The translations under genes and the position numbers were made by a program. The notes under the pieces were generated by a model that was not told the DNA's origin, did not search any database, and was given only the letters and a program-made list of their open reading frames with translations. Of a stretch of DNA of 64,000 nucleotides, positions 4,833 to 53,290 are shown in pieces. Positions within the stretch are counted from its first letter, which is position 1. Every line of letters starts with the position of its first letter. Source of the stretch: Clostridia bacterium (GTDB taxonomy: Bacteria; Bacillota; Clostridia; Oscillospirales; CAG-272); the NCBI GenBank assembly GCA_017556745.1, contig JAFYMF010000010.1, positions 92,893 to 156,892 on the forward strand. Reading direction: 5' to 3'.

Positions 4833-5554
4833 AAAACATCAAAAAAAGAGAAAAAATGTATTTTTATTCATTTTTGCTTGCTTTTCTGCCGTTTTTTATT
4901 TTGATACTGTCATTAAGTGTCAAAGGCGGCGTTGGAGAGAGAAAAGATATTGCCAACGTATACTCTCATAAAGAAAACTGCGACATGAAAATAGCATTGA
5001 CCTTTGACGATGGTCCGCATGGCGTTAAGACCGCGGTTATACTTGATATCCTGAAAAAGTATTCTGTCCCAGCAACATTTTTTGTATTAGGCGAAAATGC
5101 AGAGAAACATCCCGAAATAATAAAAAGGGAAATTAAAGAGGGGCACGAAATAGGAAACCATACCTACAGTCATTTGGCCATATCGGAGAAGAATATATCA
5201 GGTATGAGAGATGAGATAATCAAGACTGAAAATTCTGTATATGAAATAACCGAATATCGTCCAAAGCTGTTCAGACCTCCCGAGGGAAGATGTAATGAGA
5301 ACATTGCTTCTATAGCGGCATCTCTTGATTATTCGGTGATACTTTGGAATATAGATACCAGGGACTGGGCACACACGTCACGTGACTGTATAGTGGATAT
5401 GGTTCTTAATAATATCGAATCAGGTGATATAGTACTGTTTCATGATGCTGTATCAGGCAAATCAAACACAGCAGATGCACTCGAGATCATTATCCCAAAA
5501 CTTAAAGAAAAAGGTTATATATTTGTAACGGTATCCGAACTGCTTGAAAGTTGA
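4829..5554 (+). CDS. Polysaccharide deacetylase family protein (NodB homology domain)
   Basis: Motifs TFDDGPH, HEIGNHTYSH, LFRPPEG and LFHD, with an N-terminal TM segment. Its ATGA start overlaps the upstream stop. Confidence 0.8.
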   Translation: MKNIKKREKMYFYSFLLAFLPFFILILSLSVKGGVGERKDIANVYSHKENCDMKIALTFDDGPHGVKTAVILDILKKYSVPATFFVLGENAEKHPEIIKREIKEGHEIGNHTYSHLAISEKNISGMRDEIIKTENSVYEITEYRPKLFRPPEGRCNENIASIAASLDYSVILWNIDTRDWAHTSRDCIVDMVLNNIESGDIVLFHDAVSGKSNTADALEIIIPKLKEKGYIFVTVSELLES

Positions 5555-5568
5555 TACTAAGGATAAAA

Positions 5569-5606
5569 ACAGTCCGGTTTTTCTCAGAAAAGCCGGACTG
5601 TTTTTA
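5569..5606 (+). terminator. Rho-independent terminator
   Basis: ACAGTCCGG ... CCGGACTGT stem followed by a T-run. Confidence 0.7.
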
Positions 5607-5704
5607 CAGATCATTTTCACCTATAATTTTGTGGATTATATTGACAATATATACCGAATACTGTACACTTGGTTTATAAACGTTTTACCGGAGGCGGACT
5701 TGAT

Positions 5705-7225
5705 ATGAAATTGTTCAAAAGTAGTTTTTTACCATTTGTTCTTGTGTTCTGCATCATTTTTTCTTCATGTTCCGGTGTGGATACCGAGGAGATTACAGAA
5801 GGTTCCGATGCAGATACTACTACTAAAATAGAAGACACGACAGATAATATCTCAAGTGATGAATCCGAGTACAAAATTGATGAAGAATACAGTTACGAAA
5901 CGTGGAGAAAAAACGCGTATGATTATCTTAAGTCTGTAACGATAACTGCAGATGGAGGGTCAATTTACATTTCAGATGATTCAGCCACTCTTGCATGGGG
6001 AACTTCATATATGCTTGATGCACTGTATAAAGGATATTGTGCAACAGGAGATATTGCTTTCCTTGACCAGTTTGCTATATACGCATTCAGGGTATATGAA
6101 CTGATGGCTGACAAGGACGGTGACGGTTTTCTCAACTGGGGTACCGGAAATTATAGCGATAACGGTGAATACAAGGAATATGCAGTTCACTGTGGAATGG
6201 TGACTTCGATAACGGGTAGTTTTGTGTGCCTTGTTAATGCGAACCCTTCACTTGCCGAAAAAGATACTCCTCTCGGCATGACCTATGGTGAGTTTGCGGA
6301 ATACATCATAGACAGAACGGTTAATCACTTGATCCCCACATATGATCGTGATTGGGATGAGGATCTTGGGGTTTACATGGAGCACTACAGAAGAATATCA
6401 CTTCCTCATAATCAATATCTTGTTATGGCTATGGCTATGATGAAATTTGCTGTGGTTTCCCCTGAACACTGCGAAGAATACATACATAGAGCGGAAAAAA
6501 TGCTCGATACTTTTAACCGTTATGTTATTCGTTTTCCGAGTATCGATGCTGTGACTTGGTGTTATGATGACATAATGTTTGATGGAGACGAAAGCGCTCA
6601 GGACACAGAGGATTTTTCTCACGGTATGCTTGACGTAAGAGCGGCTATATTTGGGTATGAAAACGGGTTGGTTTTTTCGCTTGAGGACATAGAAACTTTT
6701 GCAAACAATTATTCTGTTTTCATGCATAGAGATGCCGAAGATTATCCTATGTTATCGTCAAAAGTTGATGGAACGGGAAGTACTACCGGTGATATATACT
6801 ATTGGATATATGATATTGCCATGTACAGAGAAGCAATGATGACAAGAGGAATGGAGTATTTGATAAATTCAGGCACATCGAAATCTCAGGACTCACTTCG
6901 CATACTGGCATATCATCCTTACACACCTACACCCGAGGATTTTTCTCTTACGTACCCCGAAAATCAGGAAGAGTCAGTAAATCCCGATTTTTCTGTATTT
7001 TGTTGGCAGAGAGCACCGTATGCGAATTATTATTGTGTTCAAATAGCAGAAGATGCGGAGTTTGAAAATATTATTGTTAACAGAGATAAAATACAGGACT
7101 CAAGCGTTATTGTCAAAGATCTTCCTGAAGATTCTACTCTTTATTACAGGGTTATTGCAAAGAATATGAGTGGCGAGGAAACTGTAAGTGATACATATTC
7201 CTTTAAAACCGGGGAGGCGAAATAA
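5705..7225 (+). CDS. Lipoprotein of unknown function with a C-terminal Fn3-like module
   Basis: Signal peptide plus lipobox (FSSC) after the ATG at 5705. An acidic linker follows, then a large helical domain. The C-terminal ~90 aa (YYRVIAKNMSGEETVSDTYSFKT) look Fn3-like. Confidence 0.6.
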   Translation: MKLFKSSFLPFVLVFCIIFSSCSGVDTEEITEGSDADTTTKIEDTTDNISSDESEYKIDEEYSYETWRKNAYDYLKSVTITADGGSIYISDDSATLAWGTSYMLDALYKGYCATGDIAFLDQFAIYAFRVYELMADKDGDGFLNWGTGNYSDNGEYKEYAVHCGMVTSITGSFVCLVNANPSLAEKDTPLGMTYGEFAEYIIDRTVNHLIPTYDRDWDEDLGVYMEHYRRISLPHNQYLVMAMAMMKFAVVSPEHCEEYIHRAEKMLDTFNRYVIRFPSIDAVTWCYDDIMFDGDESAQDTEDFSHGMLDVRAAIFGYENGLVFSLEDIETFANNYSVFMHRDAEDYPMLSSKVDGTGSTTGDIYYWIYDIAMYREAMMTRGMEYLINSGTSKSQDSLRILAYHPYTPTPEDFSLTYPENQEESVNPDFSVFCWQRAPYANYYCVQIAEDAEFENIIVNRDKIQDSSVIVKDLPEDSTLYYRVIAKNMSGEETVSDTYSFKTGEAK

Positions 7226-43103: not shown

Positions 43104-43424
43104 ATGTATACGGAAGAAAACAATATGATGTCACGTGAAATGATCGGTAACGAGTATCTTTTGCATGCGGCTGACAATAGAGGGCACAAATGTGATATGC
43201 CAAATAACAGATGTAACAGAAATACAGATAACGGCATAAGATGTACACCAAGCAAGACCTTTGGTCTTGATGGCTATCCTCTTGCCTCGATGTATGCTCC
43301 GCTTCAGGAATTCAGAAATCTATACGATAAGGAGACTGCTCTTATGGATGGCACTCTTTTTGCAGAGCTTAATCTTCCTTTTATGGGTGCAAGTGTTACA
43401 AAAGGAAGGTGTTTACATGATTAA
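43104..43424 (+). CDS. cotJA: Spore coat-associated protein CotJA
   Basis: GYPLASMYAPLQEFRNLYDKETALMDGTLFAELNLPF matches the CotJA family core. First gene of the cotJ operon. The exact start is uncertain. Confidence 0.75.
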   Translation: MYTEENNMMSREMIGNEYLLHAADNRGHKCDMPNNRCNRNTDNGIRCTPSKTFGLDGYPLASMYAPLQEFRNLYDKETALMDGTLFAELNLPFMGASVTKGRCLHD

Positions 43425-43746
43425 TTCCGGTAGACTAGATAGACGTGATTTATCAGCGGTGCGAAGATGTTCTGGGACAAATATCACGCCAAAGGAGACA
43501 AGAAAGCTCATCCATGAACTTCAACTCATAGATTTTTCGCTGATTGATACAATACTGTATCTTGATGCATATCCTTGCTCGGCAGAGGCACTTGATCACT
43601 ATCATAAACTACTTGCCGAAAAGAAGAAGATAGAAGAACTGCTGAGTCAAAGTGGATATCCCATAACAGCTAAAAACAATATATCCACATCTGCTTGGAA
43701 ATGGACAGATGGTCCATGGCCCTGGGAACTTGACGCTAACATGTGA
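43417..43746 (+). CDS. cotJB: Spore coat protein CotJB
   Basis: IDFSLIDTILYLDAYPCSAEALDHYH...GPWPWE. The ATG at 43417 follows an AAAGGAAGG RBS and overlaps the cotJA stop. Confidence 0.85.
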   Translation: MINSGRLDRRDLSAVRRCSGTNITPKETRKLIHELQLIDFSLIDTILYLDAYPCSAEALDHYHKLLAEKKKIEELLSQSGYPITAKNNISTSAWKWTDGPWPWELDANM

Positions 43747-43766: not shown

Positions 43767-43953
43767 ATGTGGATTTATGAAAAGAAACTTGAATATCCCG
43801 TTAAGATAAAGCACCCAAATTTACAAATTGCTAATATAGTGGTATCACAGCTTGGTGGACCGGATGGGGAACTCGGTGCATCTATGAGGTATCTTCATCA
43901 AAGATATTCCTGCCCCAATGCAAAAATAAGCGGAATACTGACAGATGTCGGTA
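43767..43953 (+). CDS. cotJC: cotJC 5' segment (codons 1-62 of a split manganese-catalase-family spore coat gene)
   Basis: MWIYEKKLEYPVKIK...GGPDGELGASMRYLHQRY...ILTDVG is colinear with the CotJC N-terminus. Homology stops at 43953. The ORF then reads 9 unrelated codons and stops at 43980-43982. Confidence 0.85.
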
Positions 43954-43985
43954 TAGAGGATATAAATTGTGCATTTATGTGATAA

Positions 43986-44220
43986 AAAATATTTATGAGG
44001 AAAAATCTCCTTTAAAAAAATCTTTCATACTTATTATGTAAACTTACATGAGTGAGTTTCGAAAAATATTTTTAATAAAGGAGAAAATTTTTTATGGAAA
44101 AAAATTTCATTTTCAATGGCGCTACTTATAATACTCGCGAGGAAGCAGAAGAGGCAGTATTTAACTATGCTACCGAAACATACGATGATATGTTGGATGA
44201 ATGCAATGAAGAGGTCAAAA
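43986..44220 (+). repeat. Repeat A, copy 1 (5' regulatory region plus first codons of orf93)
   Basis: Near-identical to 44577-44764: AAAATATTTATGAGGAAAAATCTCC...TCTTTCATACTT...AAACTTAC-N4-GT(G/A)AGTTT...AAGGAGAAA..ATGGAAAAAA. The coding part is alignable except for a 45-nt indel. Confidence 0.85.
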
Positions 44221-44375
44221 TCGGTAGTTTATCCTATCCTGTGTCATATGTTTTCAAAAGAGTTGATGAAATCGCTTATCGTTGTGGTTTGAACGATTAT
44301 GCTGATAGTTTGTTGTATGACATTGAAACAGAAGAGGTTGAACCAGAGGAAGACGAAATTGACGAAGAAAGATAA
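44094..44375 (+). CDS. Small acidic hypothetical protein (93 aa)
   Basis: AAAGGAG RBS. Highly acidic C-terminus (EEVEPEEDEIDEER). Shares its first ~12 codons and the DMLDEC-EEVK block with the downstream methyltransferase gene. Confidence 0.6.
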   Translation: MEKNFIFNGATYNTREEAEEAVFNYATETYDDMLDECNEEVKIGSLSYPVSYVFKRVDEIAYRCGLNDYADSLLYDIETEEVEPEEDEIDEER

Positions 44376-44407
44376 TACCAAGAAATGAACTAACCTAATA
44401 CAGAAAG

Positions 44408-44439
44408 AACGAGATGTCTCCGGGACATTTCGTTTTTTC
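44408..44439 (+). terminator. Rho-independent terminator
   Basis: AACGAGATGTC / GACATTTCGTT stem (one G-U pair) plus T6. Confidence 0.7.
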
Positions 44440-44467
44440 TGTTTACTACTGAATTTTATTCTGTCAC

Positions 44468-44546
44468 GCTTTGTTTGGATGTGTGCCGTATGGAGTAGGT
44501 TGGTGCTGTTATGTCTTGTTAAGTTCGGTTCTGCGAAAAAAACGGA
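44468..44546 (+). repeat. Repeat B, copy 1 (79 bp)
   Basis: GCTTTGTTTGGATGTGTGCCGTATGGAGTAGGTTGGTGCTGTTATGTCTTGTTAAGTTCGGTTCTGCGAAAAAAACGGA. It differs from copy 2 by 2 substitutions and 1 A-run indel. Confidence 0.9.
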
Positions 44547-44576
44547 TTTCCGTGAAGGATCCATCAAAAAACCAAC

Positions 44577-44764
44577 AAAATATTTATGAGGAAAAATCTC
44601 CTTTTATAAAATCTTTCATACTTTTCATGAAAACTTACACCAGTAAGTTTGTGAAAAATATATTTTATAAGGAGAAATTTCTATGGAAAAAATTTTTGTT
44701 TTTAATAACAGTCCTTACAACACATGCGAGGATATGCTGGATGAATGCTATGATGAGGTCAAAA
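44577..44764 (+). repeat. Repeat A, copy 2 (5' regulatory region plus first codons of the methyltransferase gene)
   Basis: See copy 1. It contains the perfect inverted repeat AAACTTAC-acca-GTAAGTTT (44631-44650). Confidence 0.85.
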
Positions 44765-45390
44765 CACCGAAAAAAGCAACGAAAGTTCCAGAGAGTAAGA
44801 CGAACAATAATATTTTCACTCCCTTGGGGGCAAGTAACCATTCGAACAAAAAACGAGAAGAACATGACTATTATGCAACTGACCCAAAGGCGTTGGAACT
44901 CTTGTTAGAACTTGAATCCTTTTCCAATTATGTATGGGAGTGTGCTTGCGGTGGCGGACATTTAAGTGAAGTCCTAAAAAAACACGGTCACGATGTAAAG
45001 TCAACAGATATTATTGACCGCGGTTATGAGGGAACAGAACTCATGGACTTTTTGACTGTAACCAAAGAAGACATAGCAAACGAGCACTCAAGAGATATTA
45101 TCACAAACCCACCTTACAAGTATGGAAAAGAGTTTGTAGAGCATGCATTGAACATTTCCCCAGAGGGAACAAAAATTGCCATGTTCTTAAAAGTACAATT
45201 CCTTGAGGGGAAAGCACGCAAAGCACTGTTCAACAAGTACCCACCCAAAACAATCTATGTATCGTCAAGTAGATTGCTGTGTGCCAAAAATGGTGTGTTT
45301 AAAGAAGACGAAAGTTCCGCTATAGCGTATGCTTGGTATATTTGGGAAAAGGGTTATGCCGGTGACACCATAATCAAATGGTTTAACTAA
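44683..45390 (+). CDS. Orphan DNA methyltransferase (NPPY, N6-adenine/N4-cytosine type) with an N-terminus borrowed from the orf93 family
   Basis: HDYYATDPKALELLL, VWECACGGGHLSEVL (SAM-binding) and IITNPPYKYG (catalytic) motifs. There is no adjacent restriction endonuclease gene. Confidence 0.75.
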   Translation: MEKIFVFNNSPYNTCEDMLDECYDEVKTPKKATKVPESKTNNNIFTPLGASNHSNKKREEHDYYATDPKALELLLELESFSNYVWECACGGGHLSEVLKKHGHDVKSTDIIDRGYEGTELMDFLTVTKEDIANEHSRDIITNPPYKYGKEFVEHALNISPEGTKIAMFLKVQFLEGKARKALFNKYPPKTIYVSSSRLLCAKNGVFKEDESSAIAYAWYIWEKGYAGDTIIKWFN

Positions 45391-45417
45391 AACAAAGGCG
45401 AAAGTTCTAATCTGCCT

Positions 45418-45497
45418 GCTTTGTTTGGATGTGTGCCGTATGGAGTAGGTTGGTGCAGTTATGTCTTGTTAAGTTTGGTTCTGCGAAAAAAAACGGA
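45418..45497 (+). repeat. Repeat B, copy 2 (80 bp)
   Basis: See copy 1. It starts 28 bp after the methyltransferase stop. Confidence 0.9.
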
Positions 45498-45591
45498 ATT
45501 TTTGCAATTTTCCGATTTTCAATCAAACTTGTCATACTTATATCGTAACAAAATACATAGTTCCCACGAATATGGGAAGAAAGGAAAAGTC

Positions 45592-45807
45592 ATGAAAGAA
45601 TTAAAAAAGTATATGGAATGTCTAAACGATGAAGAGTTCGGGCGACTTGTCAAAACATATTTTTATTATATGACACATCAAGACATTCCACCGAATATTG
45701 ATAGTCGCGCAGAACAGATATTTAGAACGACCATCAAAGCAAAATGTGATGTTCAACTTAAAGACAGAATAAGAAAAAGAAAGGGGAAAACAAATGCGAG
45801 AGGTTAA
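45592..45807 (+). CDS. Small hypothetical protein (72 aa), phage/plasmid replisome-organiser-N-terminal-like motif
   Basis: AAGGAAAAG RBS with ATG at 45592. LNDEEFGRLVKTYFYY resembles the L(S/T)DEExGxL motif of DnaD-like / DUF6291-type proteins. Basic C-terminus. Confidence 0.5.
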   Translation: MKELKKYMECLNDEEFGRLVKTYFYYMTHQDIPPNIDSRAEQIFRTTIKAKCDVQLKDRIRKRKGKTNARG

Positions 45808-46375
45808 AGACACGTTGGGAATAAAATATGATAAGTATGCTCTGTTGTATAATATGGATGACAGAGATGCCGGAAAACTGATAAAGTATTTGTTGTGGCA
45901 CTTTGGAAAGGACTGCATTTTAGAAAACTTGACAGCAGTATCAAAGAAGAAAATCACAGAGTATTCGAACAAGTTGGAAAAAGATGTTGAGGATATGCTG
46001 GATGATTTTCTGTTTGATAAGATATTTACAGAAATGACACAGCAAGTAACTAAATCACATAAATGTTGGCAAACTCTCAAAGATAACTTGGAAAAAAACA
46101 AAGGCAAAAATAAAGATACAGTAGAGAATCAAGGAACTGAACCACCGTGGGAACCGCCGTGTGTCCCCAATATGCATGTTATAGACATATACATAGAGGA
46201 AACCGGGGAAATTGAAACGATTATCGTGGAGGAAGAATACAAGAACAACACACCGTCCGGTGAGGAGTTAAATGCACACTTTTTATCTGATGATATTAAA
46301 TATATTATTATGAACGGGAATGGAAACGGATGGGTGGAACATTGGAGCGAATATGAACCATGTTCAAATAGTTAA
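45794..46375 (+). CDS. Hypothetical protein (193 aa)
   Basis: Overlaps the upstream stop by 14 nt. Contains the MDDRDAGKLIKYLLWH motif, similar to the previous ORF, and YDKYALLY, shared with the next ORF. Confidence 0.55.
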   Translation: MREVKDTLGIKYDKYALLYNMDDRDAGKLIKYLLWHFGKDCILENLTAVSKKKITEYSNKLEKDVEDMLDDFLFDKIFTEMTQQVTKSHKCWQTLKDNLEKNKGKNKDTVENQGTEPPWEPPCVPNMHVIDIYIEETGEIETIIVEEEYKNNTPSGEELNAHFLSDDIKYIIMNGNGNGWVEHWSEYEPCSNS

Positions 46376-46396
46376 TAGAAGAAAGGAGAACAAAAC

Positions 46397-46636
46397 GTGA
46401 GAACAGTTAAAAACAGTAGCGGTCATACATATCTAATACTTGCGGAATACGATAAATACGCCCTGCTGTATTGTCAACACTATAACGAGTACATTGTTGC
46501 ATATGGCATGGAAAATCAATTGTGTAACACAATAAAATGGCAGCAAGGTAGGTATTTCCAAAACGACCAAATCGCTGCTATAAACTACTTCAACGAAAAA
46601 ACACTAGAAAAGAAAGGAGAAACAATCAATGGATGA
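46397..46636 (+). CDS. Hypothetical protein (79 aa)
   Basis: GAAAGGAG RBS with GTG start. Shares the MRxVK...YDKYALLY pattern with the 193-aa ORF, with synonymous third-position differences. Confidence 0.5.
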   Translation: MRTVKNSSGHTYLILAEYDKYALLYCQHYNEYIVAYGMENQLCNTIKWQQGRYFQNDQIAAINYFNEKTLEKKGETING

Positions 46637-46814
46637 TAAAATCACTTGGGAAGATTTAGAGATTATCTTCACAAAAGAATTCGTTGACACCCTTAAACTG
46701 ATATATCAAAACAAAGACAGCATACTGCGATTAGCGAAAAAAAGGCAATCAGCACTCAAAGATATCGAAAATATGCTGAAAGATATCGAAGAGAAAAAGT
46801 ACAAAGATGATTGA
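46629..46814 (+). CDS. Hypothetical protein (61 aa)
   Basis: GAAAGGAG RBS. Overlaps the upstream gene by 8 nt. Predicted helical and charged. Confidence 0.45.
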   Translation: MDDKITWEDLEIIFTKEFVDTLKLIYQNKDSILRLAKKRQSALKDIENMLKDIEEKKYKDD

Positions 46815-46946
46815 CAGATACACACAGAAATCACTGTCGGTAGACCTTGCGGACTTGGTACAAGTCGTAGTAAGTCATATTTCTGCGAAATGGAAACAGT
46901 TTCGCTCATACTGTTATCATTAGAGCAGAGATATGACCGCACGAAG

Positions 46947-47050
46947 AAATACCCTCGTCGGATCGACGAGGGTATTTTGCAGTAAGGTTTAACGGCAACA
47001 ACTACCGCTTTCTGTTGCCGTTCCTTTGCTCCCACAATTTTGAGCAAAGG
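46947..47050. other. Three consecutive perfect hairpins upstream of the relaxase gene (candidate oriT region)
   Basis: Hairpin 1 is AAATACCCTCGTCG-gat-CGACGAGGGTATTT (46947-46977). Hairpin 2 is AACGGCAACA-N12-TGTTGCCGTT (46991-47022). Hairpin 3 is CCTTTGCTC-N10-GAGCAAAGG (47023-47050) and overlaps the mob RBS. Confidence 0.4.
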
Positions 47051-47061
47051 AGATTTTTGAC

Positions 47062-47754
47062 ATGAGCAGATATGCAATCATGCGATTTCAAAAATATAAG
47101 GTGGGTTCGGTCGCAAACATCGAGCGACACCAAAACCACCGTGACCGCCTCCGCAATCGCAAGTACCCAGAGCGAGAGGGCGAAAACTACACTTGGAAAC
47201 GATATGATGAAACAATGACGCAGACAGTCCGCAAAGCGATAAAAGCACAGGAGCAGGAGACTGGGCGAAAAGTCCGCAAGGATGTAAATGTGATATGTGA
47301 GTTGGTGCTGACATTCTCCCCCGAAATGGAACACGAGGTTGATTTAGTGGAATGGATGAAAGCAAACATCCGATGGGTTGGCAGAACATTCGGCAAAGGG
47401 AAAACCTTGAGAGTTGACCTAAACCGAGACGAAACCACCACTCATATACATTGCTTCGTGATAATGACCGATGAGCAAGGGAGATTCAATTCTTCGCGAT
47501 TCTTCAACAAGAAAAAACAAGTCATAGAAATGCAAGACAGTTATGCCGAAGCAATGAAACAATTTGGACTTGAAAGAGGACAGAGCAAGGATATTACTAG
47601 TGCAAGACATAAAACTTTACAAGAATGGAGAACGGAGGAGTGTGAGCGGTTGGAAAAGGAACTTTCTCATATTGCGGATAGAATATTTGCAGATAAACCG
47701 AAAATCGAATACAAAGGAACGATTGATACCGATGTGTTAAATGATGAACGATAA
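47062..47754 (+). CDS. MobV-family (Mob_Pre) relaxase, short form
   Basis: MSRYAIMRFQKYKVGSVANIERHQNHRDR resembles the N-terminus of pMV158 MobM (M..ARMQK.K.G.L....H..R). RDETTTHIHCFV corresponds to the HxDExxPHxH motif. It is only 230 aa. Confidence 0.8.
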   Translation: MSRYAIMRFQKYKVGSVANIERHQNHRDRLRNRKYPEREGENYTWKRYDETMTQTVRKAIKAQEQETGRKVRKDVNVICELVLTFSPEMEHEVDLVEWMKANIRWVGRTFGKGKTLRVDLNRDETTTHIHCFVIMTDEQGRFNSSRFFNKKKQVIEMQDSYAEAMKQFGLERGQSKDITSARHKTLQEWRTEECERLEKELSHIADRIFADKPKIEYKGTIDTDVLNDER

Positions 47755-47811
47755 AAAGGTGCTGTTTTTAACATTTCTCTAAAATGGCTTTACTTTTATG
47801 GGAATATGTGC

Positions 47812-47984
47812 TATAATAGTTATGCCACACAAACCGAATACTTATGCTCGTTTAGGGGGAGATTACCTTGGCAAAAGGTGCTCTCCTTAATCCCCTATGC
47901 GAGTAGAGCGGAGGTTTGTGTGGCAACGAACGAGGATGTAGCACTTTTTCGGTGTGTACGACCTCGGTCGTGCACACTTTTTTT
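47812..47984 (+). ncRNA. Candidate structured RNA or single-strand DNA element: ~100-nt rod-like hairpin with its own promoter-like -10 and terminator
   Basis: TGcTATAAT at 47809-47817. The 12-bp closing helix GCCACACAAACC (47824-47835) / GGTTTGTGTGGC (47913-47924) encloses nested helices CTCG/CGAG, TAGGGG/CCCCTA, GAGA/TCTC and CCTT/AAGG. A 12-bp terminator stem at 47952-47977 is followed by T7. Confidence 0.45.
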
Positions 47985-48004
47985 ATTATACTGGAGGAAA
48001 TCAA

Positions 48005-48706
48005 ATGAAAACCAAAACATTAGTAACACTGTTACTCACAATAGTGATGATACTGTCACTCGCATCTTGTAACAAAAATCAACTAAGCGAACAGCCCACC
48101 GAAACCGAAAATGATATTCCCGAAACTAGCAATCAATCTGTATCCCCAACAGATATCGATGATACAAGTTCTATTACCCCCTTACCTACTGATACGGATG
48201 ATTCAACAGAAACTGCTGATGATAGTATTTTGTATTCTGGTCGAGAAATGTATGAAGAAATCATTTATGCATTTATAGAAGCAGATGATGAACTTTCTAG
48301 AGGTTGGTTCGACAAAGATGCTCAAAATTTAGTTCGGTTAATTAAAGGTGATACTATATCTTCTGATGCATCAGTAACAGATTTATTAAAGGTTTACAGA
48401 GGTTTTGATGATATAATTGAATTTACTGATTATTGTATTAGAGATTTTTTCACTGTGACAAATTCTTATGAATCAACAAATGGTGGTGTATACAATTTTT
48501 TTGAGGCAATAAATCAGTTGGAAGATGAAAAACTAAACAATTGCGATGTTATTAAGACCAATTCGAATGGAAATGTAATAGGTTTTGATTTCGATATTGC
48601 TGGTGGAGATAAGGCAATTGCACAGGCATTGGGAGTAAGCGAAGAATTTGTAAATATTATGATACATGCTGCTTCCGATGCAGGATTCAACGTGACATTT
48701 GATTAG
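48005..48706 (+). CDS. Lipoprotein of unknown function (element cargo)
   Basis: GGAGGAAA RBS. MKTKTLVTLLLTIVMILSLASC signal peptide with lipobox. A T/D/E/S-rich linker is followed by a ~170-aa globular domain. Confidence 0.65.
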   Translation: MKTKTLVTLLLTIVMILSLASCNKNQLSEQPTETENDIPETSNQSVSPTDIDDTSSITPLPTDTDDSTETADDSILYSGREMYEEIIYAFIEADDELSRGWFDKDAQNLVRLIKGDTISSDASVTDLLKVYRGFDDIIEFTDYCIRDFFTVTNSYESTNGGVYNFFEAINQLEDEKLNNCDVIKTNSNGNVIGFDFDIAGGDKAIAQALGVSEEFVNIMIHAASDAGFNVTFD

Positions 48707-48765
48707 TTTACATACAAAAGATATGGGAGAAAAGAAAAATCTCTCATATCTTTTTTAACAATGTT

Positions 48766-49521
48766 TTATTTTTGCTTACATTGAGATAATAATTCTGCAA
48801 GGATATTTTGGAATGGAACAATACTTGCTAATGCTTTTTTACTATCAAACCACCCGTGCATTAGATTGTTTGCTTTACAAAACCACATTGAGGAAATATG
48901 ATTTAGAAAAATATCGTTCTTAATTTTTTCGGTAAAATCATTTGCGTACATTTCGCAAATAGAGCGGATTCCCCAATAATTGTATAAAACTCCTACTGCC
49001 ATTTTTAATGTTTCGAAATCATTTGGAAAATCTGTTTTACTAAATAAATCAATAGCAAGTTGTTGTTTTTCCTCTATGTATTCTAACACTGTTTTACTTA
49101 TTGAAAATGGTTTGATAAGGGTATTCATCGTAAAATTAGGAACATCGTCAATCGTATTTGCTCCAAGTAATTTTACCAACCCTACTTGTGATGCATGGTA
49201 TTCGCTAAATCCTGTAATACCCAAATATATAATTTTATTTCCTTGGGCAAATTGATGTGCATCAAGTATATGGGTAAATTCATGAAAAATCAAAAAATCG
49301 GAATTTAAAACATTTCTATTGACCGTAAGTGTGTGTGAATTTGTATCAACTTTGTAATCTGCGGCAGCAATAGAACCAGCACCAAATGAATCAATCTCGC
49401 TTTGAGATACCTCGTCTATTTTAATCATATATGTAGGGAAATCTTTGATTTCCATAAACCGCATATATTCTTTTTCAAGATTTCTAATTTTTAACTCTAA
49501 TCTATCTATTTTAACTTTCAT
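48766..49521 (-). CDS. HExxH-motif protein (putative zinc metallopeptidase; distant ImmA/IrrE-like?)
   Basis: 251 aa, cytoplasmic. FLIFHEFTHILDAH contains HExxH, with a downstream EYH. It lies 23 nt downstream of the recombinase gene on the same strand. Confidence 0.55.
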   Translation of the reverse strand: MKVKIDRLELKIRNLEKEYMRFMEIKDFPTYMIKIDEVSQSEIDSFGAGSIAAADYKVDTNSHTLTVNRNVLNSDFLIFHEFTHILDAHQFAQGNKIIYLGITGFSEYHASQVGLVKLLGANTIDDVPNFTMNTLIKPFSISKTVLEYIEEKQQLAIDLFSKTDFPNDFETLKMAVGVLYNYWGIRSICEMYANDFTEKIKNDIFLNHISSMWFCKANNLMHGWFDSKKALASIVPFQNILAELLSQCKQK

Positions 49522-49544
49522 TCCTCAAATCTTCCTAACTCATC

Positions 49545-51302
49545 TTAAATCTTTTCAAATCCGTTTTTAGGTGCTTTTCCAAGCATTTCGACAAACTGTT
49601 CTTTTGAAAGAACAGTAAACTCTGCCGTGTAGTCCTCGCCCCTGCCTGTGGTCTTATATTGCAGATAGATAGGCATAGGAATGAACGACAAGTGAAACTC
49701 AAGCAAATTGTCGGGATATACAAAAATCTGCTTTGTCGCTCTCTCATAGTAGACGTCGTTCAAATCATCGGCAGAGAGGTCAACCATTTCTTGCAGTTGC
49801 TTTATGTAGTCCTCGTATATCCGTATCTCTGCTTCAGTAGTGTCTGATATCTGTAAATTTTTCAGTTCGGTCTGCAATTGTTCAAATTCATCATTTACCG
49901 TTACGATTGTTGCTTGATAAGCACTTTCTGGAACAATGCCACTTATCCATCCCTGTGTGAGTTTGGCAAGTTGCTCCTGTTTCTTTGATATTGCCTTTTC
50001 CAATTCTGCGATTTTCGTGGTGTTGTCCTTGGGTTTGGAAAGTTCCTCTATATCCCTTTGCAATTCTGCGAGAATGATGTCTTTGTTCGGGATGAGGTAA
50101 TCTGCCACAATATCATGAACGGCAGTTTTAAGCACTCTGTCATTCACTCTCAAAGCATTACAACCAACAGTAGTGATTTCGCCCGTGTCAAGTGTTATTT
50201 GCTTGTAGCGACCTCTCTGGTGGTTCTCAAAGCATACCCAAGCACGATACGGAATATTCTTCTGCTTCTTTACGTAACTGACATACCGCCGACCGCACAA
50301 ACCGCAGTAAACCTTGCCACTCGTCCAGTATCGGTTGGAGTGCTTCGCCTTGATTTCTTCGCTCGGTGCTTTCTCTTCAAGTATGGTCTGTACCTTGTTC
50401 CAAAGTTCTCGGTCGATGATAGCACTTTCCGGGTGGTGGTCTTGTATGTAAAACATATGTGATTCGCCACGGTTGTATTTCTTTTTATGGGTGAGTGCAT
50501 TTGGTGTATATGTCTTACCTTGTGCCAAATCTCCTACATATTTCTCATTTCGCAGTATACGAAGAATAACGGTATTACTCCAACCGTTTTTGTATCTTTT
50601 TGTGGTTATTCCTTGCTGTTCCAATCGCCTTGCAATACGGTGTGTGCCTTCGCCTGCTGCAAACCATTCGAACATGTTCTTGATGACCTTTGCTTCCTCT
50701 GGAACGATTTCAAAGTGCTGTATACCAAGTTCATCTTTAACAATATTGTAACCGTACATCTCTTTTCGACCGAAAACCGTACCAAGTTCCATCTGTTGTT
50801 GGTGTCCCCATTTGACACGGCGAGATGTTCGCAAACTCTCTTGCTCTGCATTTGTTGCGATTTGAGTGAGTCGCTCTCGATAGTCGTTGCTCTCCGTATT
50901 GATGTCATCCGACAAGAACCAGATATAAACTCCTTTGGCGCGGAGTTCTTCGACAATATTCAAAAGGTGCTGAACATTTCGTGAAAAACGCGAAACCTCT
51001 TTTGTGAGGATGATGTCTATACCGCCACTACGAGCAAGGTGGAGCATACGAATGAAACCATCTCTTTTTTCAAGAGAGGTGCCAGAAAGTCCCTCATCCG
51101 CAAAAATTCCAACATTGCTCCAATTCTTGTGAGAATTGAAATACCGAGCGAAAAACTGCTTTTGTGCTATCAGAGAGTTCTTTTGGTCGCTCTCATCGGT
51201 AGATACACGGCAGTAGGCACAAACACGGTGCGGTTCGTTATCATTTGTTTTGAGTGGTCGTTTTGCGGGTTCTATTACTGTTGTTGTTCCCATTTTGCAC
51301 AT
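49545..51302 (-). CDS. Large serine recombinase
   Basis: The N-terminal resolvase domain carries the catalytic-Ser context AYCRVSTDESDQ. Further features are SRFSRN, a recombinase domain, a zinc-ribbon (CGLCGRRY...WVCFENH...VGC) and a C-terminal coiled coil. 585 aa, as in SpoIVCA/SprA-type enzymes. Confidence 0.9.
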   Translation of the reverse strand: MCKMGTTTVIEPAKRPLKTNDNEPHRVCAYCRVSTDESDQKNSLIAQKQFFARYFNSHKNWSNVGIFADEGLSGTSLEKRDGFIRMLHLARSGGIDIILTKEVSRFSRNVQHLLNIVEELRAKGVYIWFLSDDINTESNDYRERLTQIATNAEQESLRTSRRVKWGHQQQMELGTVFGRKEMYGYNIVKDELGIQHFEIVPEEAKVIKNMFEWFAAGEGTHRIARRLEQQGITTKRYKNGWSNTVILRILRNEKYVGDLAQGKTYTPNALTHKKKYNRGESHMFYIQDHHPESAIIDRELWNKVQTILEEKAPSEEIKAKHSNRYWTSGKVYCGLCGRRYVSYVKKQKNIPYRAWVCFENHQRGRYKQITLDTGEITTVGCNALRVNDRVLKTAVHDIVADYLIPNKDIILAELQRDIEELSKPKDNTTKIAELEKAISKKQEQLAKLTQGWISGIVPESAYQATIVTVNDEFEQLQTELKNLQISDTTEAEIRIYEDYIKQLQEMVDLSADDLNDVYYERATKQIFVYPDNLLEFHLSFIPMPIYLQYKTTGRGEDYTAEFTVLSKEQFVEMLGKAPKNGFEKI

Positions 51303-51552
51303 CCTCTCTCTTAATACCCATAACGTCTCTTATGTACTTCTTGAACTCTTCAACGAAAACTGCTTGTGCTTCCGGTGTCTTAAAAAGTGCATCTGGGTTT
51401 GTAATCACAAAGGTGTGCTCCTTGCTATGTGTATTTACATAGCAAGCATATGATTCTGCGATGTATTTTAGTAATTCATCCTCATTTGTAATTGTGGAAG
51501 CAACCGTGAATTGTTCTGCGGTCATGTACTCTTTATAGTTATAAAAGTCCAT
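51241..51552 (-). CDS. Small hypothetical protein (103 aa), first gene of the recombinase operon
   Basis: GGAGGG RBS lies 6 nt before the ATG at 51552; the track ORF starts further upstream, inside cotJC sequence, which is implausible. Its 3' end overlaps the recombinase start by about 60 nt in another frame. Confidence 0.5.
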   Translation of the reverse strand: MDFYNYKEYMTAEQFTVASTITNEDELLKYIAESYACYVNTHSKEHTFVITNPDALFKTPEAQAVFVEEFKKYIRDVMGIKREDVQNGNNNSNRTRKTTTQNK

Positions 51553-51574
51553 TTTCATCCCTCCTGTCATATCT

Positions 51575-51603
51575 ATTATATCATGCACAATTTTATTCGT
51601 CAA
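51575..51603 (-). promoter_or_regulatory. Near-consensus sigma-A promoter of the recombinase operon, embedded in the right att arm
   Basis: On the minus strand: TTGACG (51603-51598), 17 bp, TGaTATAAT (-10 at 51580-51575). The -35 box ends 2 bp from the GGTA core. Confidence 0.55.
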
Positions 51604-51609
51604 TAGGTA

Positions 51610-52031
51610 CCGAAGAACTCGCCCACCTTGAGATTGTGGCGGCAATACTTCACCAGCTAACACGTGACCTTACCCCCGATCAGATAGCAGGTACTCCTTT
51701 TGCTACATATTTTGTAGATCATACCGCTGGAGTATACCCAGTAGCTGCCTCGGGAGTACCGTTTGATATGAAATACGTAGGAGTAAAGGGCGATCTTCTC
51801 ACCGACCTTAATGAAGATCTTGCGGCAGAACAAAAAGCGAGAACGACCTACGATAATATTCTTCGCCTCGTTGACGATCCTGACGTAAGAGATCCGATAA
51901 AATTCCTTCGTGCGAGAGAGATCGTTCACTATCAGAGGTTTGGCGATGCCCTGCGTATAGCACAGGATAATTTGGACCACAAGAACTTTTACGCTTGCAA
52001 TCCTTCATTTGACAAAAACTGCGGGAAATAA
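51610..52031 (+). CDS. cotJC: cotJC 3' segment (codons 63-202)
   Basis: In-frame (T)EELAHLEIVAAILHQLT...GVPF...LAAEQKARTTYD...FLRAREIVHYQRF is colinear with the CotJC/Mn-catalase C-terminal part. There is no RBS or ATG of its own. Confidence 0.85.
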
Positions 52032-52035
52032 AACA

Positions 52036-52070
52036 AAGAGCAGATGCTTTTGCATCTGCTCTTTCTATTC
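52036..52070 (+). terminator. Rho-independent terminator of the cotJ operon
   Basis: AAGAGCAGATGC tttt GCATCTGCTCTT stem followed by a T-rich tail. Confidence 0.75.
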
Positions 52071-53013: not shown

Positions 53014-53274
53014 TGAAGTGAACCCAAAAGTTTAGACAAAATTAAATATTAAATTGCTTGTGAATGAGCTCGGTATTGAACTGGGCTCATTCCTTTTAAT
53101 TTGAGAGAAATTCTCTCGTTGTTGTAGTAATGTATGTATTTCCCAAGTGGTTGTCTCGCATATCCATTATAACATGAATTTTGAATTCTGCCGAGTATTT
53201 TTTGTTTTTTCTGCCTGTTTTGCCCATAAAAAATATGCACCTCCAAAAGTGTCTAACTTTTGAGATGCATATCA
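53014..53274 (-). mobile_element. Internally deleted IS3-family (IS150-like) remnant, 261 bp
   Basis: Terminal inverted repeats TGAAGTGAACCCAAAAGTTTAGACA (53014-) and TGATATGCATCTCAAAAGTTAGACA (complement of -53274). The interior fuses an OrfA-like start (MGKTGRKNKKYSAEFKIHVI) to an OrfB C-terminal end (YIHYYNNERISLKLKGMSPVQYR). Flanked by TTT/TTT. Confidence 0.7.
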
Positions 53275-53290
53275 TTTTTCCTGCGTTTTT

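Follow-up and report, generated by a model that had tools for sequence, protein, structure and literature searches.

A cotJC-splitting large serine recombinase element from a Clostridia genome is probably a site-specific integrative mobilizable element

The spore-coat gene cotJC is split by an element of 7,656 bp that bears a large serine recombinase (LSR) gene in a Clostridia bacterium of the CAG-272 lineage (Oscillospirales; GenBank assembly GCA_017556745.1). The stretch analysed, here called the window, comprises 64,000 nucleotides of contig JAFYMF010000010.1 (positions 92,893 to 156,892, forward strand), and all positions are counted from its first letter. The element is probably a site-specific integrative mobilizable element (IME) of a large LSR family, the host attachment site (attB) of which is the conserved metal-site stretch of cotJC, encoding ..TDxG and, across the break, TEELxHLE... 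Judged from its sequence, cotJC is really split by the element, and precise excision would restore the full-length gene. The original prediction for this DNA had been a developmental intervening element of the skin/SPbeta kind. The geometry of such elements is indeed present, but the content is different, with no phage genes and instead a MobV relaxase gene and a palindrome resembling an origin of transfer (oriT). Split sporulation genes are a classic form of programmed DNA rearrangement, to which the cotJC locus adds a well-delimited case with an exact empty site. The cotJC split is also no one-off: it marks out an LSR family that is very widespread among uncultured Clostridia of the gut.

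In the proposed mechanism, the LSR would exchange strands at the GG of the Gly62 codon of cotJC, and recombination between attB and an attP of about 50 bp, composed of two imperfectly inverted arms around GG, would place the element inside the gene. Insertion orientation would be set only by the central dinucleotide, the same arms sitting reversed when they carry CC. A sigma-A-type promoter located within the LSR-proximal att arm would drive a module of a 103-aa protein and the LSR, and with its MobV relaxase and oriT-like palindrome the excised circle would be open to mobilisation from host to host by a conjugative helper element. On precise excision, cotJC would be restored exactly. In this scheme we infer the autoregulation, the mobilisation, the role of the 103-aa protein and the timing of excision. 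In our reading, cotJC serves the element mainly as a safe harbour, a conserved target that is not expressed during vegetative growth, and a tight link between excision and sporulation is improbable; if excision did take place in the mother cell, cotJC would be rebuilt and the germ-line copy of the element would lose nothing.

The split cotJC gene and its uninterrupted form

The features of the interrupted operon are as follows.

43104..43424 (+), cotJA (Pfam CotJA, E 2.1e-12)
43417..43746 (+), cotJB (Pfam CotJB, E 5.5e-19)
43767..43953 (+), cotJC 5' segment, codons 1-62 and the first base of codon 63
43954..51609, inserted element of 7,656 bp (43952-51607 with the GG crossover as reference)
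51610..52031 (+), cotJC 3' segment, from the last two bases of codon 63 to the stop
52035..52064, hairpin terminator 3' of cotJC

Similarity to CotJC stops after ..ILTDVG (GGT at 43950-43952) and picks up again at 51610. Joining 43767-43953 to 51610-52031 gives 187 + 422 = 609 nt, or 202 codons plus a stop, in which the split codon (A from the 5' segment, CC from the 3' segment) encodes Thr and the motif TDVG-T-EELAHLE is restored. The original prediction had placed the break at codon 62 with this same arithmetic and Thr junction, and its coordinates hold on recomputation. The joined product matches Pfam Mn_catalase (E 4.6e-52) in a single colinear stretch, with residues 1-183 corresponding to profile positions 1-197, and aligns with thousands of intact CotJC proteins of about 200 aa at up to 97% identity and 98-100% coverage.

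The exact 202-aa joined CotJC is found in a public protein collection (P0268), where it is encoded on two Logan contigs from two other public samples. Compared with the window flanks, the DNA of these contigs has 99.1-99.4% identity, and it runs through the join without a break as GATGTCGGTACCGAAGAAC. An uninterrupted cotJC in close relatives, which the original prediction had suggested looking for, does exist. The empty-site strain differs from the window strain by 21 mismatches in 2.4 kb and belongs to the same species, and the in-silico excision product is identical to the protein of this uninterrupted locus with 99% identical flanks. In a more distant relative (81% nucleotide identity) cotJABC is likewise uninterrupted. 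There is no second cotJC copy in the 64-kb window.

The interrupted form has been assembled independently on at least seven contigs from several samples, and an assembly artefact is excluded because the same insertion recurs on all of these. A chimera or misjoin, which the original prediction had itself raised, has in its favour only that it is an a priori possibility in metagenome assemblies. Set against it are the identical junctions on at least seven contigs from different samples and assemblers, and some 70 other genomes in which related elements occupy this codon; its probability is negligible. What had been claimed in outline, that a discrete LSR-bearing element precisely splits a spore-coat gene, presumably of the mother-cell class, is borne out.

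Insertion site, recombinase and polarity

Relatives were sought with an alignment of recombinase homologues in a scan of one genome per bacterial species, which gave at least 573 LSR loci, the best 80 of which were examined. Fragments of cotJC adjoin the LSR gene in 77 of these 80 (40-85% identity), and the break falls at CotJC residues 59-66 in nearly all of the 77 loci, even where LSR identity is 40%. Carriers include Lachnospiraceae, Acutalibacteraceae, Faecousia, Ruminococcus, Roseburia, Acetatifactor and others. In many metagenome-assembled genomes, automatic gene prediction will wrongly present cotJC as a pair of pseudogene fragments. The recombination sites and the recombinase module of the window element are the following.

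43950..43951, crossover dinucleotide GG of attL, positions 1-2 of the Gly62 codon (from comparison of attL and attR across the family)
43952..43974, LSR-distal att arm, forming an imperfect terminal inverted repeat with 51583-51605
49545..51302 (-), LSR, a 585-aa ORF (the database form is of 582 aa, with its start at 51293)
51241..51552 (-), conserved 103-aa ORF directly upstream of the LSR gene, which it overlaps
51575..51603 (-), sigma-A-type promoter TTGACG-17 nt-TATAAT with TG extension, in the LSR-proximal att arm
51583..51605, LSR-proximal att arm (terminal inverted repeat)
51606..51607, crossover dinucleotide GG of attR (from the same comparison)

The attL junction reads GGT in 58/61 loci, and attR reads ..AGG-N and then ACN GAR GAR, where N is T in 24, C in 12, A in 11 and G in 1. 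Strand exchange maps to GG, because the base after GG is that of the element in attL and the host wobble base in attR. The tetranucleotide GGTA that had been noted at both breakpoints is there, but the crossover core is GG only, as judged from about 60 junctions, and the other two bases agree by chance in the window. The two att arms constitute a 23-nt inverted repeat (I4) with 78% complementarity. The predicted attB (excision) junction is GATGTCGGTACCGAAGAACTC and the predicted attP (circle) junction is TTCGTCAATAGGTATAGAGGAT. In their inner part, TAT(T/A)GA(C/G)GA, both element arms are similar to the host half-site TACCGAAGAA.

The LSR lies at one edge of the element, as had been described, and carries the Resolvase (PF00239, E 4e-28) and Recombinase (PF07508, E 3.6e-24) domains, together with a Zn_ribbon_recom match of 23.6 bits that is slightly below the cut-off of 25.3 bits. 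The motif R32-V33-S34, with S34 as the serine nucleophile, is invariant across 31 homologues, and Cys333, 336, 357 and 381 are invariant among the homologues aligned. The AF2 model (mean pLDDT 73) comprises catalytic and recombinase domains, a zinc ribbon and, at 428-485, long paired helices, and gives full-length alignments with the phiC31, Bxb1 and LI-type integrases (E 1e-18 to 1e-13). Its catalytic domain matches structure 3g13, and the nearest solved relative by sequence is the catalytic domain only of a C. difficile transposon recombinase. On sequence and modelled fold, the protein classes as a serine integrase, with a catalytic serine, recombinase and zinc-ribbon domains with a coiled-coil, and a 2-bp core.

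Three arrangements are found in the family. In class A (n=35, including the window) the 5' end of the LSR gene adjoins attR and the gene is antisense to cotJC; in class B (n=15) the LSR 5' end adjoins attL and the gene is in the sense orientation relative to cotJC; and in class C (n=23, a clade of ~40% identity) it is the LSR 3' end that adjoins attL, again antisense to cotJC. Read on the LSR strand, class A elements start with CC-TATTGA.. and class B elements with GG-TATTGA.., the arms being common to both. As read from these junctions, the central dinucleotide is inverted relative to the arms between classes A and B, matching the polarity rule of integrases. In phiC31 and Bxb1, insertion polarity is set by the central dinucleotide alone. 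The family makes available dozens of natural LSR/attP/attB sets with one attB core, and natural pairs differing only by an inverted central dinucleotide are useful for integrase engineering. At three further loci (L072 ~4806, L077 ~4355 and L073 ~11668) an LSR of ~41% identity lies beside the 5' part of cotJC with a junction reading GGC followed by ACAGGTGATTCGCTGGTGCCCCAYAGGGTGC.., which may represent a different crossover point or a different structure.

Predicted mobilisation, spread and timing of excision

The element is classed as an IME because it has a MobV relaxase gene and an oriT-like palindrome and no phage genes. These two features are located as follows.

46947..46977, candidate oriT palindrome, with perfect 14-nt arms and a 3-nt loop (inverted repeat I13)
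47062..47754 (+), MobV-type relaxase (Mob_Pre, PF01076, E 6.2e-27), with homologues in 25 related loci

The palindrome is 85 nt upstream of the relaxase gene. The LSR and the att arms give the element its own module for integration and excision, and it combines relaxase and oriT-like palindrome with a lack of matches to mating-pore genes: none of the 11 ORFs of the insert matched a component of a type IV secretion system (T4SS) or a coupling protein in Pfam and PHROG. In the same scans no phage structural genes were found among the insert ORFs. A prophage origin was rejected, the PHROG matches being to the methyltransferase and to families of unknown function only.

Across the family, element size is 3.3-9.3 kb (median 6.1 kb). 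An LSR is present in 34/34 complete elements, the small upstream ORF in 22/34 by clustering and a Mob_Pre relaxase also in 22/34; these three are the only recurring genes, all others being variable cargo. Hosts that share as little as 60-70% CotJC identity carry LSRs of 98-99.8% identity, and conversely LSR identity is only 59% between hosts whose CotJC is 96% identical, a divergence pattern that points to transfer between hosts. The decoupling of LSR and host divergence, the relaxase, and the presence/absence polymorphism at 99% flank identity together indicate recent horizontal spread. Three loci, including the L011 element at 4885-6015, have an ORF of ~460 aa with an N-terminus that by eye resembles that of a rolling-circle-type replication initiator; if it is an initiator, this hints at plasmid ancestry or at replication of the excised circle.

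That the insertion is dead, i.e. an immobile remnant by which cotJC has been permanently inactivated in this lineage, is very unlikely. The LSR is full length with invariant catalytic residues, its promoter and ribosome-binding site are conserved, and both att arms are intact; the polymorphism at 99% flank identity and the near-identical LSRs in distant hosts also argue against a remnant. cotJC is dispensable in B. subtilis. In favour of a dead insertion, cotJC homologues are dispensable in C. difficile, where mutants in them have no major coat defect (PMC11222575), and no circular form was detected in JGI contigs or in look-ups of contigs encoding the exact proteins. The coat phenotype of these mutants also suits the IME reading, as does the usual habit of IMEs with site-specific serine recombinases to disrupt genes that are dispensable (PMC5704250). 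In C. difficile R20291 a third CotJC-like manganese catalase gene, CDR20291_1465, has the phi027 prophage as its immediate neighbour (PMC11222575), a further case of a mobile element associated with a cotJC homologue.

By tblastn the 103-aa ORF is matched at 35 related loci, in every case immediately upstream of the LSR gene, and it has 27 database homologues with a conserved LITNPDALF motif and no Pfam match. The protein has no match in Pfam, PHROG or PADLOC, and the mean pLDDT of its AF2 model (55) is too low for a fold search; by analogy it is a candidate accessory factor or recombination directionality factor (RDF). The promoter in front of it is the best sigma-70-type match in 9.5 kb (11/12 positions), and its -35 box starts 2 nt from the crossover. 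In ~35 related loci TTGA(C/A)G-17 nt-TATAAT with a TG extension likewise starts at a distance of 2 nt from the core, and AGGAGG and the small ORF come after it. A class A/B sub-clade (L036, L037, L039, L043 and L044; LSRs 46-50% identical) has TTGAC-17-TATAAT slightly further in, and no such sigma-A-type promoter was detected in class C arms. Going by these promoter sequences, the operon of small ORF and LSR looks vegetatively expressed, and it is probably autoregulated, since the -35 box is within the recombinase binding site.

A doubtful alternative to the IME reading is an intervening element under developmental regulation, which during sporulation would be excised in the mother cell only, the forespore keeping the integrated copy. 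The 103-aa protein would then act as RDF, or expression of the operon would go up on a sporulation signal, and cotJC would be rebuilt in time for coat assembly. The target is a spore-coat operon, and the region upstream of cotJA contains a sigma-E-like -10 box only, CATACTAT, ~50 nt upstream of the gene. In B. subtilis the cotJ operon is sigma-E dependent and expressed in the mother cell. Consistent with developmental control, precise reconstitution is possible, ~30/34 split genes are intact, and the small ORF and LSR lie by an att site as in the attL-rdf-int-attR unit of phi3T and the girX/girC pair of gin (PMC6957869, PMC5595907). In SPbeta, phi3T and C. difficile skin, sporulation controls only the RDF, the integrase being expressed constitutively (PMC5595907, PMC6957869). 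In addition, there is no terminator between the 5' part of cotJC and the element, and the 15 class B operons are directly downstream of this part on the same strand, so that read-through could boost their expression.

However, the candidate RDF is co-transcribed with the LSR from the near-consensus sigma-A promoter. A sigma-E pattern scan of the element gave no match, although a simple consensus scan is crude and this is a weak negative; a sigma-K scan gave one match, on the minus strand inside an opposite-strand ORF and not upstream of the LSR operon. The sole conserved operon promoter is of sigma-A type, and control of the recombinase or RDF by sigma-E or sigma-K was not found, with the same weakness as a negative. 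Conserved control by read-through is argued against because the family sits in all three arrangements relative to cotJ transcription, which leaves no common route for host-driven control. Further, the other conserved function of the family is conjugative mobilisation and not a developmental one. Sporulation-specific excision is plausible but unsupported.

Several observations weigh against the IME reading. The circle (attP) junction had 0 matches in JGI metagenome contigs, either as an exact 24-mer or as a degenerate family pattern, although assembled contigs rarely capture rare circles and this is weak evidence either way; contigs with the exact LSR or the first element ORF all have the integrated form and no circle. 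A conjugative helper was not identified, the palindrome is no more than a candidate oriT, and 12/34 complete elements are without a recognisable relaxase. By analogy, the rdf-int-att layout resembles the sporulation-regulated phi3T unit (PMC6957869). Finally, the split cotJC still joins to a full-length ORF in ~30/34 complete elements, which would also fit selection for reconstitution. The intact halves were rejected as proof of such selection, given the decoupled divergence of LSR and host: as the insertions are recent and horizontally acquired, horizontal transfer accounts for the intact halves without selection.

A combination of the two, in which a conjugatively mobilizable family doubles as a developmental switch, with the 103-aa protein as a new type of RDF, cotJC rebuilt in the mother cell across hundreds of gut Clostridia species, and cotJC, hit by other recombinase elements at two or more further positions, as a general docking gene through which mobile elements exploit the terminally differentiated mother cell, is improbable. 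The family is a testable system in which to ask if mother-cell genes are safe harbours for small mobilizable elements as they are for prophages.

Relation to known elements, cargo and neighbouring insertions

The cotJC element shares its geometry, an LSR gene at the edge of an element that splits the coding region of a sporulation gene (for cotJC presumably, like the others, of the mother-cell class), with skin (sigK/SpoIVCA), SPbeta (spsM/SprA-SprB), phi3T (kamA), vfbin (spoVFB), vrin (spoVR) and yin (yabG). As in these sporulation intervening elements, the att sites are short with imperfect inverted repeats, and excision restores the frame. Elements of the skin/SPbeta type are prophages or their remnants and are typically much larger, however, whereas cotJC elements are of 3.3-9.3 kb with a relaxase and a sigma-A promoter. 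Sporulation excision of the former has been demonstrated experimentally, with the recombinase or RDF under sporulation control. A non-phage intervening element in a sporulation gene is gin in gerE of Bacillus cereus ATCC 10987, which also has an LSR and a small accessory factor (GirC/GirX; PMC5595907). It differs in its size of 28.6 kb, three recombinases, lack of a relaxase, demonstrated sporulation-specific excision and other target (PMC5595907).

Among mobilizable elements, the Clostridium transposons Tn4451 and Tn4453 are also comparable. The tnpX promoter of Tn4451 is assembled only at the circle joint, whereas that of the cotJC element lies entirely within one att arm. Tn4451 has low target specificity, in contrast to the single codon of a single gene used here, and only in its catalytic domain is the LSR similar to TnpX (E 1.7e-6). 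Membership of the Tn4451 group was rejected on the basis of this weak TnpX homology and of the single-codon target in 77/80 loci. Like the cotJC element, Tn4451/Tn4453 are small clostridial elements (~6 kb) with an LSR (TnpX), a MobV relaxase (TnpZ), a 2-bp core and cargo (PMC5704250); TnpX needs no RDF (PMC5704250). Site-specific LSR IMEs of streptococci, e.g. in rumA, similarly disrupt a conserved dispensable gene (PMC5704250), but they differ in hosts, targets and recombinase lineages, and their targets are not linked to a terminally differentiating cell.

Insertion into cotJC is already in the literature, as are LSR-bearing IMEs and non-phage intervening elements. A cotJC-interrupting element is mentioned in bioRxiv 10.1101/2021.11.22.469490, citing Abe et al. 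2013, and one in Laceyella sacchari is reported in bioRxiv 10.1101/2022.02.25.481979. These earlier mentions are at genome-survey level, concern Bacilli and other taxa, and treat the elements as skin-like or phage/transposon-related; the target gene is the same and the elements likewise carry a recombinase. The family-scale picture, GG crossover, orientation flip, att-arm promoter and IME nature were not found in the accessible literature, which did not include Abe et al. 2013.

The insert has a GC content of 37.7%, compared with 40.5% in the flanks. Eight of its 11 ORFs are on the cotJ strand and three are on the opposite strand. Besides the recombinase module and the relaxase it contains the following cargo.

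44094..44375 (+), acidic 93-aa ORF (PHROG 9294, unknown function), not conserved in the family
44683..45390 (+), orphan DNA methyltransferase (PHROG 799, E 1.2e-64; PADLOC mad2, E 1e-6)
45592-45807, 45794-46375, 46397-46636 and 46629-46814 (all +), four small ORFs without family match
48005..48706 (+), 233-aa ORF with a hydrophobic N-terminal stretch ending in Cys, by eye a lipoprotein-like signal
48766..49521 (-), 251-aa ORF for which Pfam, PHROG and PADLOC gave no function

The leader and N-terminus of the 93-aa ORF are duplicated at 44577-44732 (direct repeats D1/D4), this being a duplication of ~150 nt of leader, ribosome-binding site and N-terminus between the 93-aa ORF (43986-44143) and the methyltransferase (44577-44732). 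A 75-nt direct repeat, 97% identical, brackets the methyltransferase gene (44468-44542 and 45418-45492); no Rfam hits to RNA genes or riboswitches were found in the element, the 75-nt repeat included, at E up to 0.1. One independent assembly breaks within the element at ~45935, ~440 bp downstream of the second copy of the 75-nt repeat.

cotJC looks like a multi-site hotspot, because it is also split elsewhere by other recombinase elements. At L045:4468-9650 the 3' part of cotJC has an additional break near residue 135, where a 4.7-kb insert carries another two serine recombinase genes (with 33% and 26% identity to the window LSR), and at L052:11731-20879 the 5' part is cut near residue 31 by an insert of ~9 kb with an LSR of 25% identity. 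The 3' part of cotJC ends at residue 136 at L059:4754-5017. This last locus (QZDW01000010.1) is one of three class C carriers, with L063 (RAYM01000033.1) and L066 (RAZE01000004.1), from strains 1XD42-76, 1xD42-87 and 1XD8-76, which are presumably cultured isolates. In the window, two short overlapping ORFs just downstream of the cotJ locus (53049-53275, minus strand) resemble, by eye, fragments of an IS3-type transposase.

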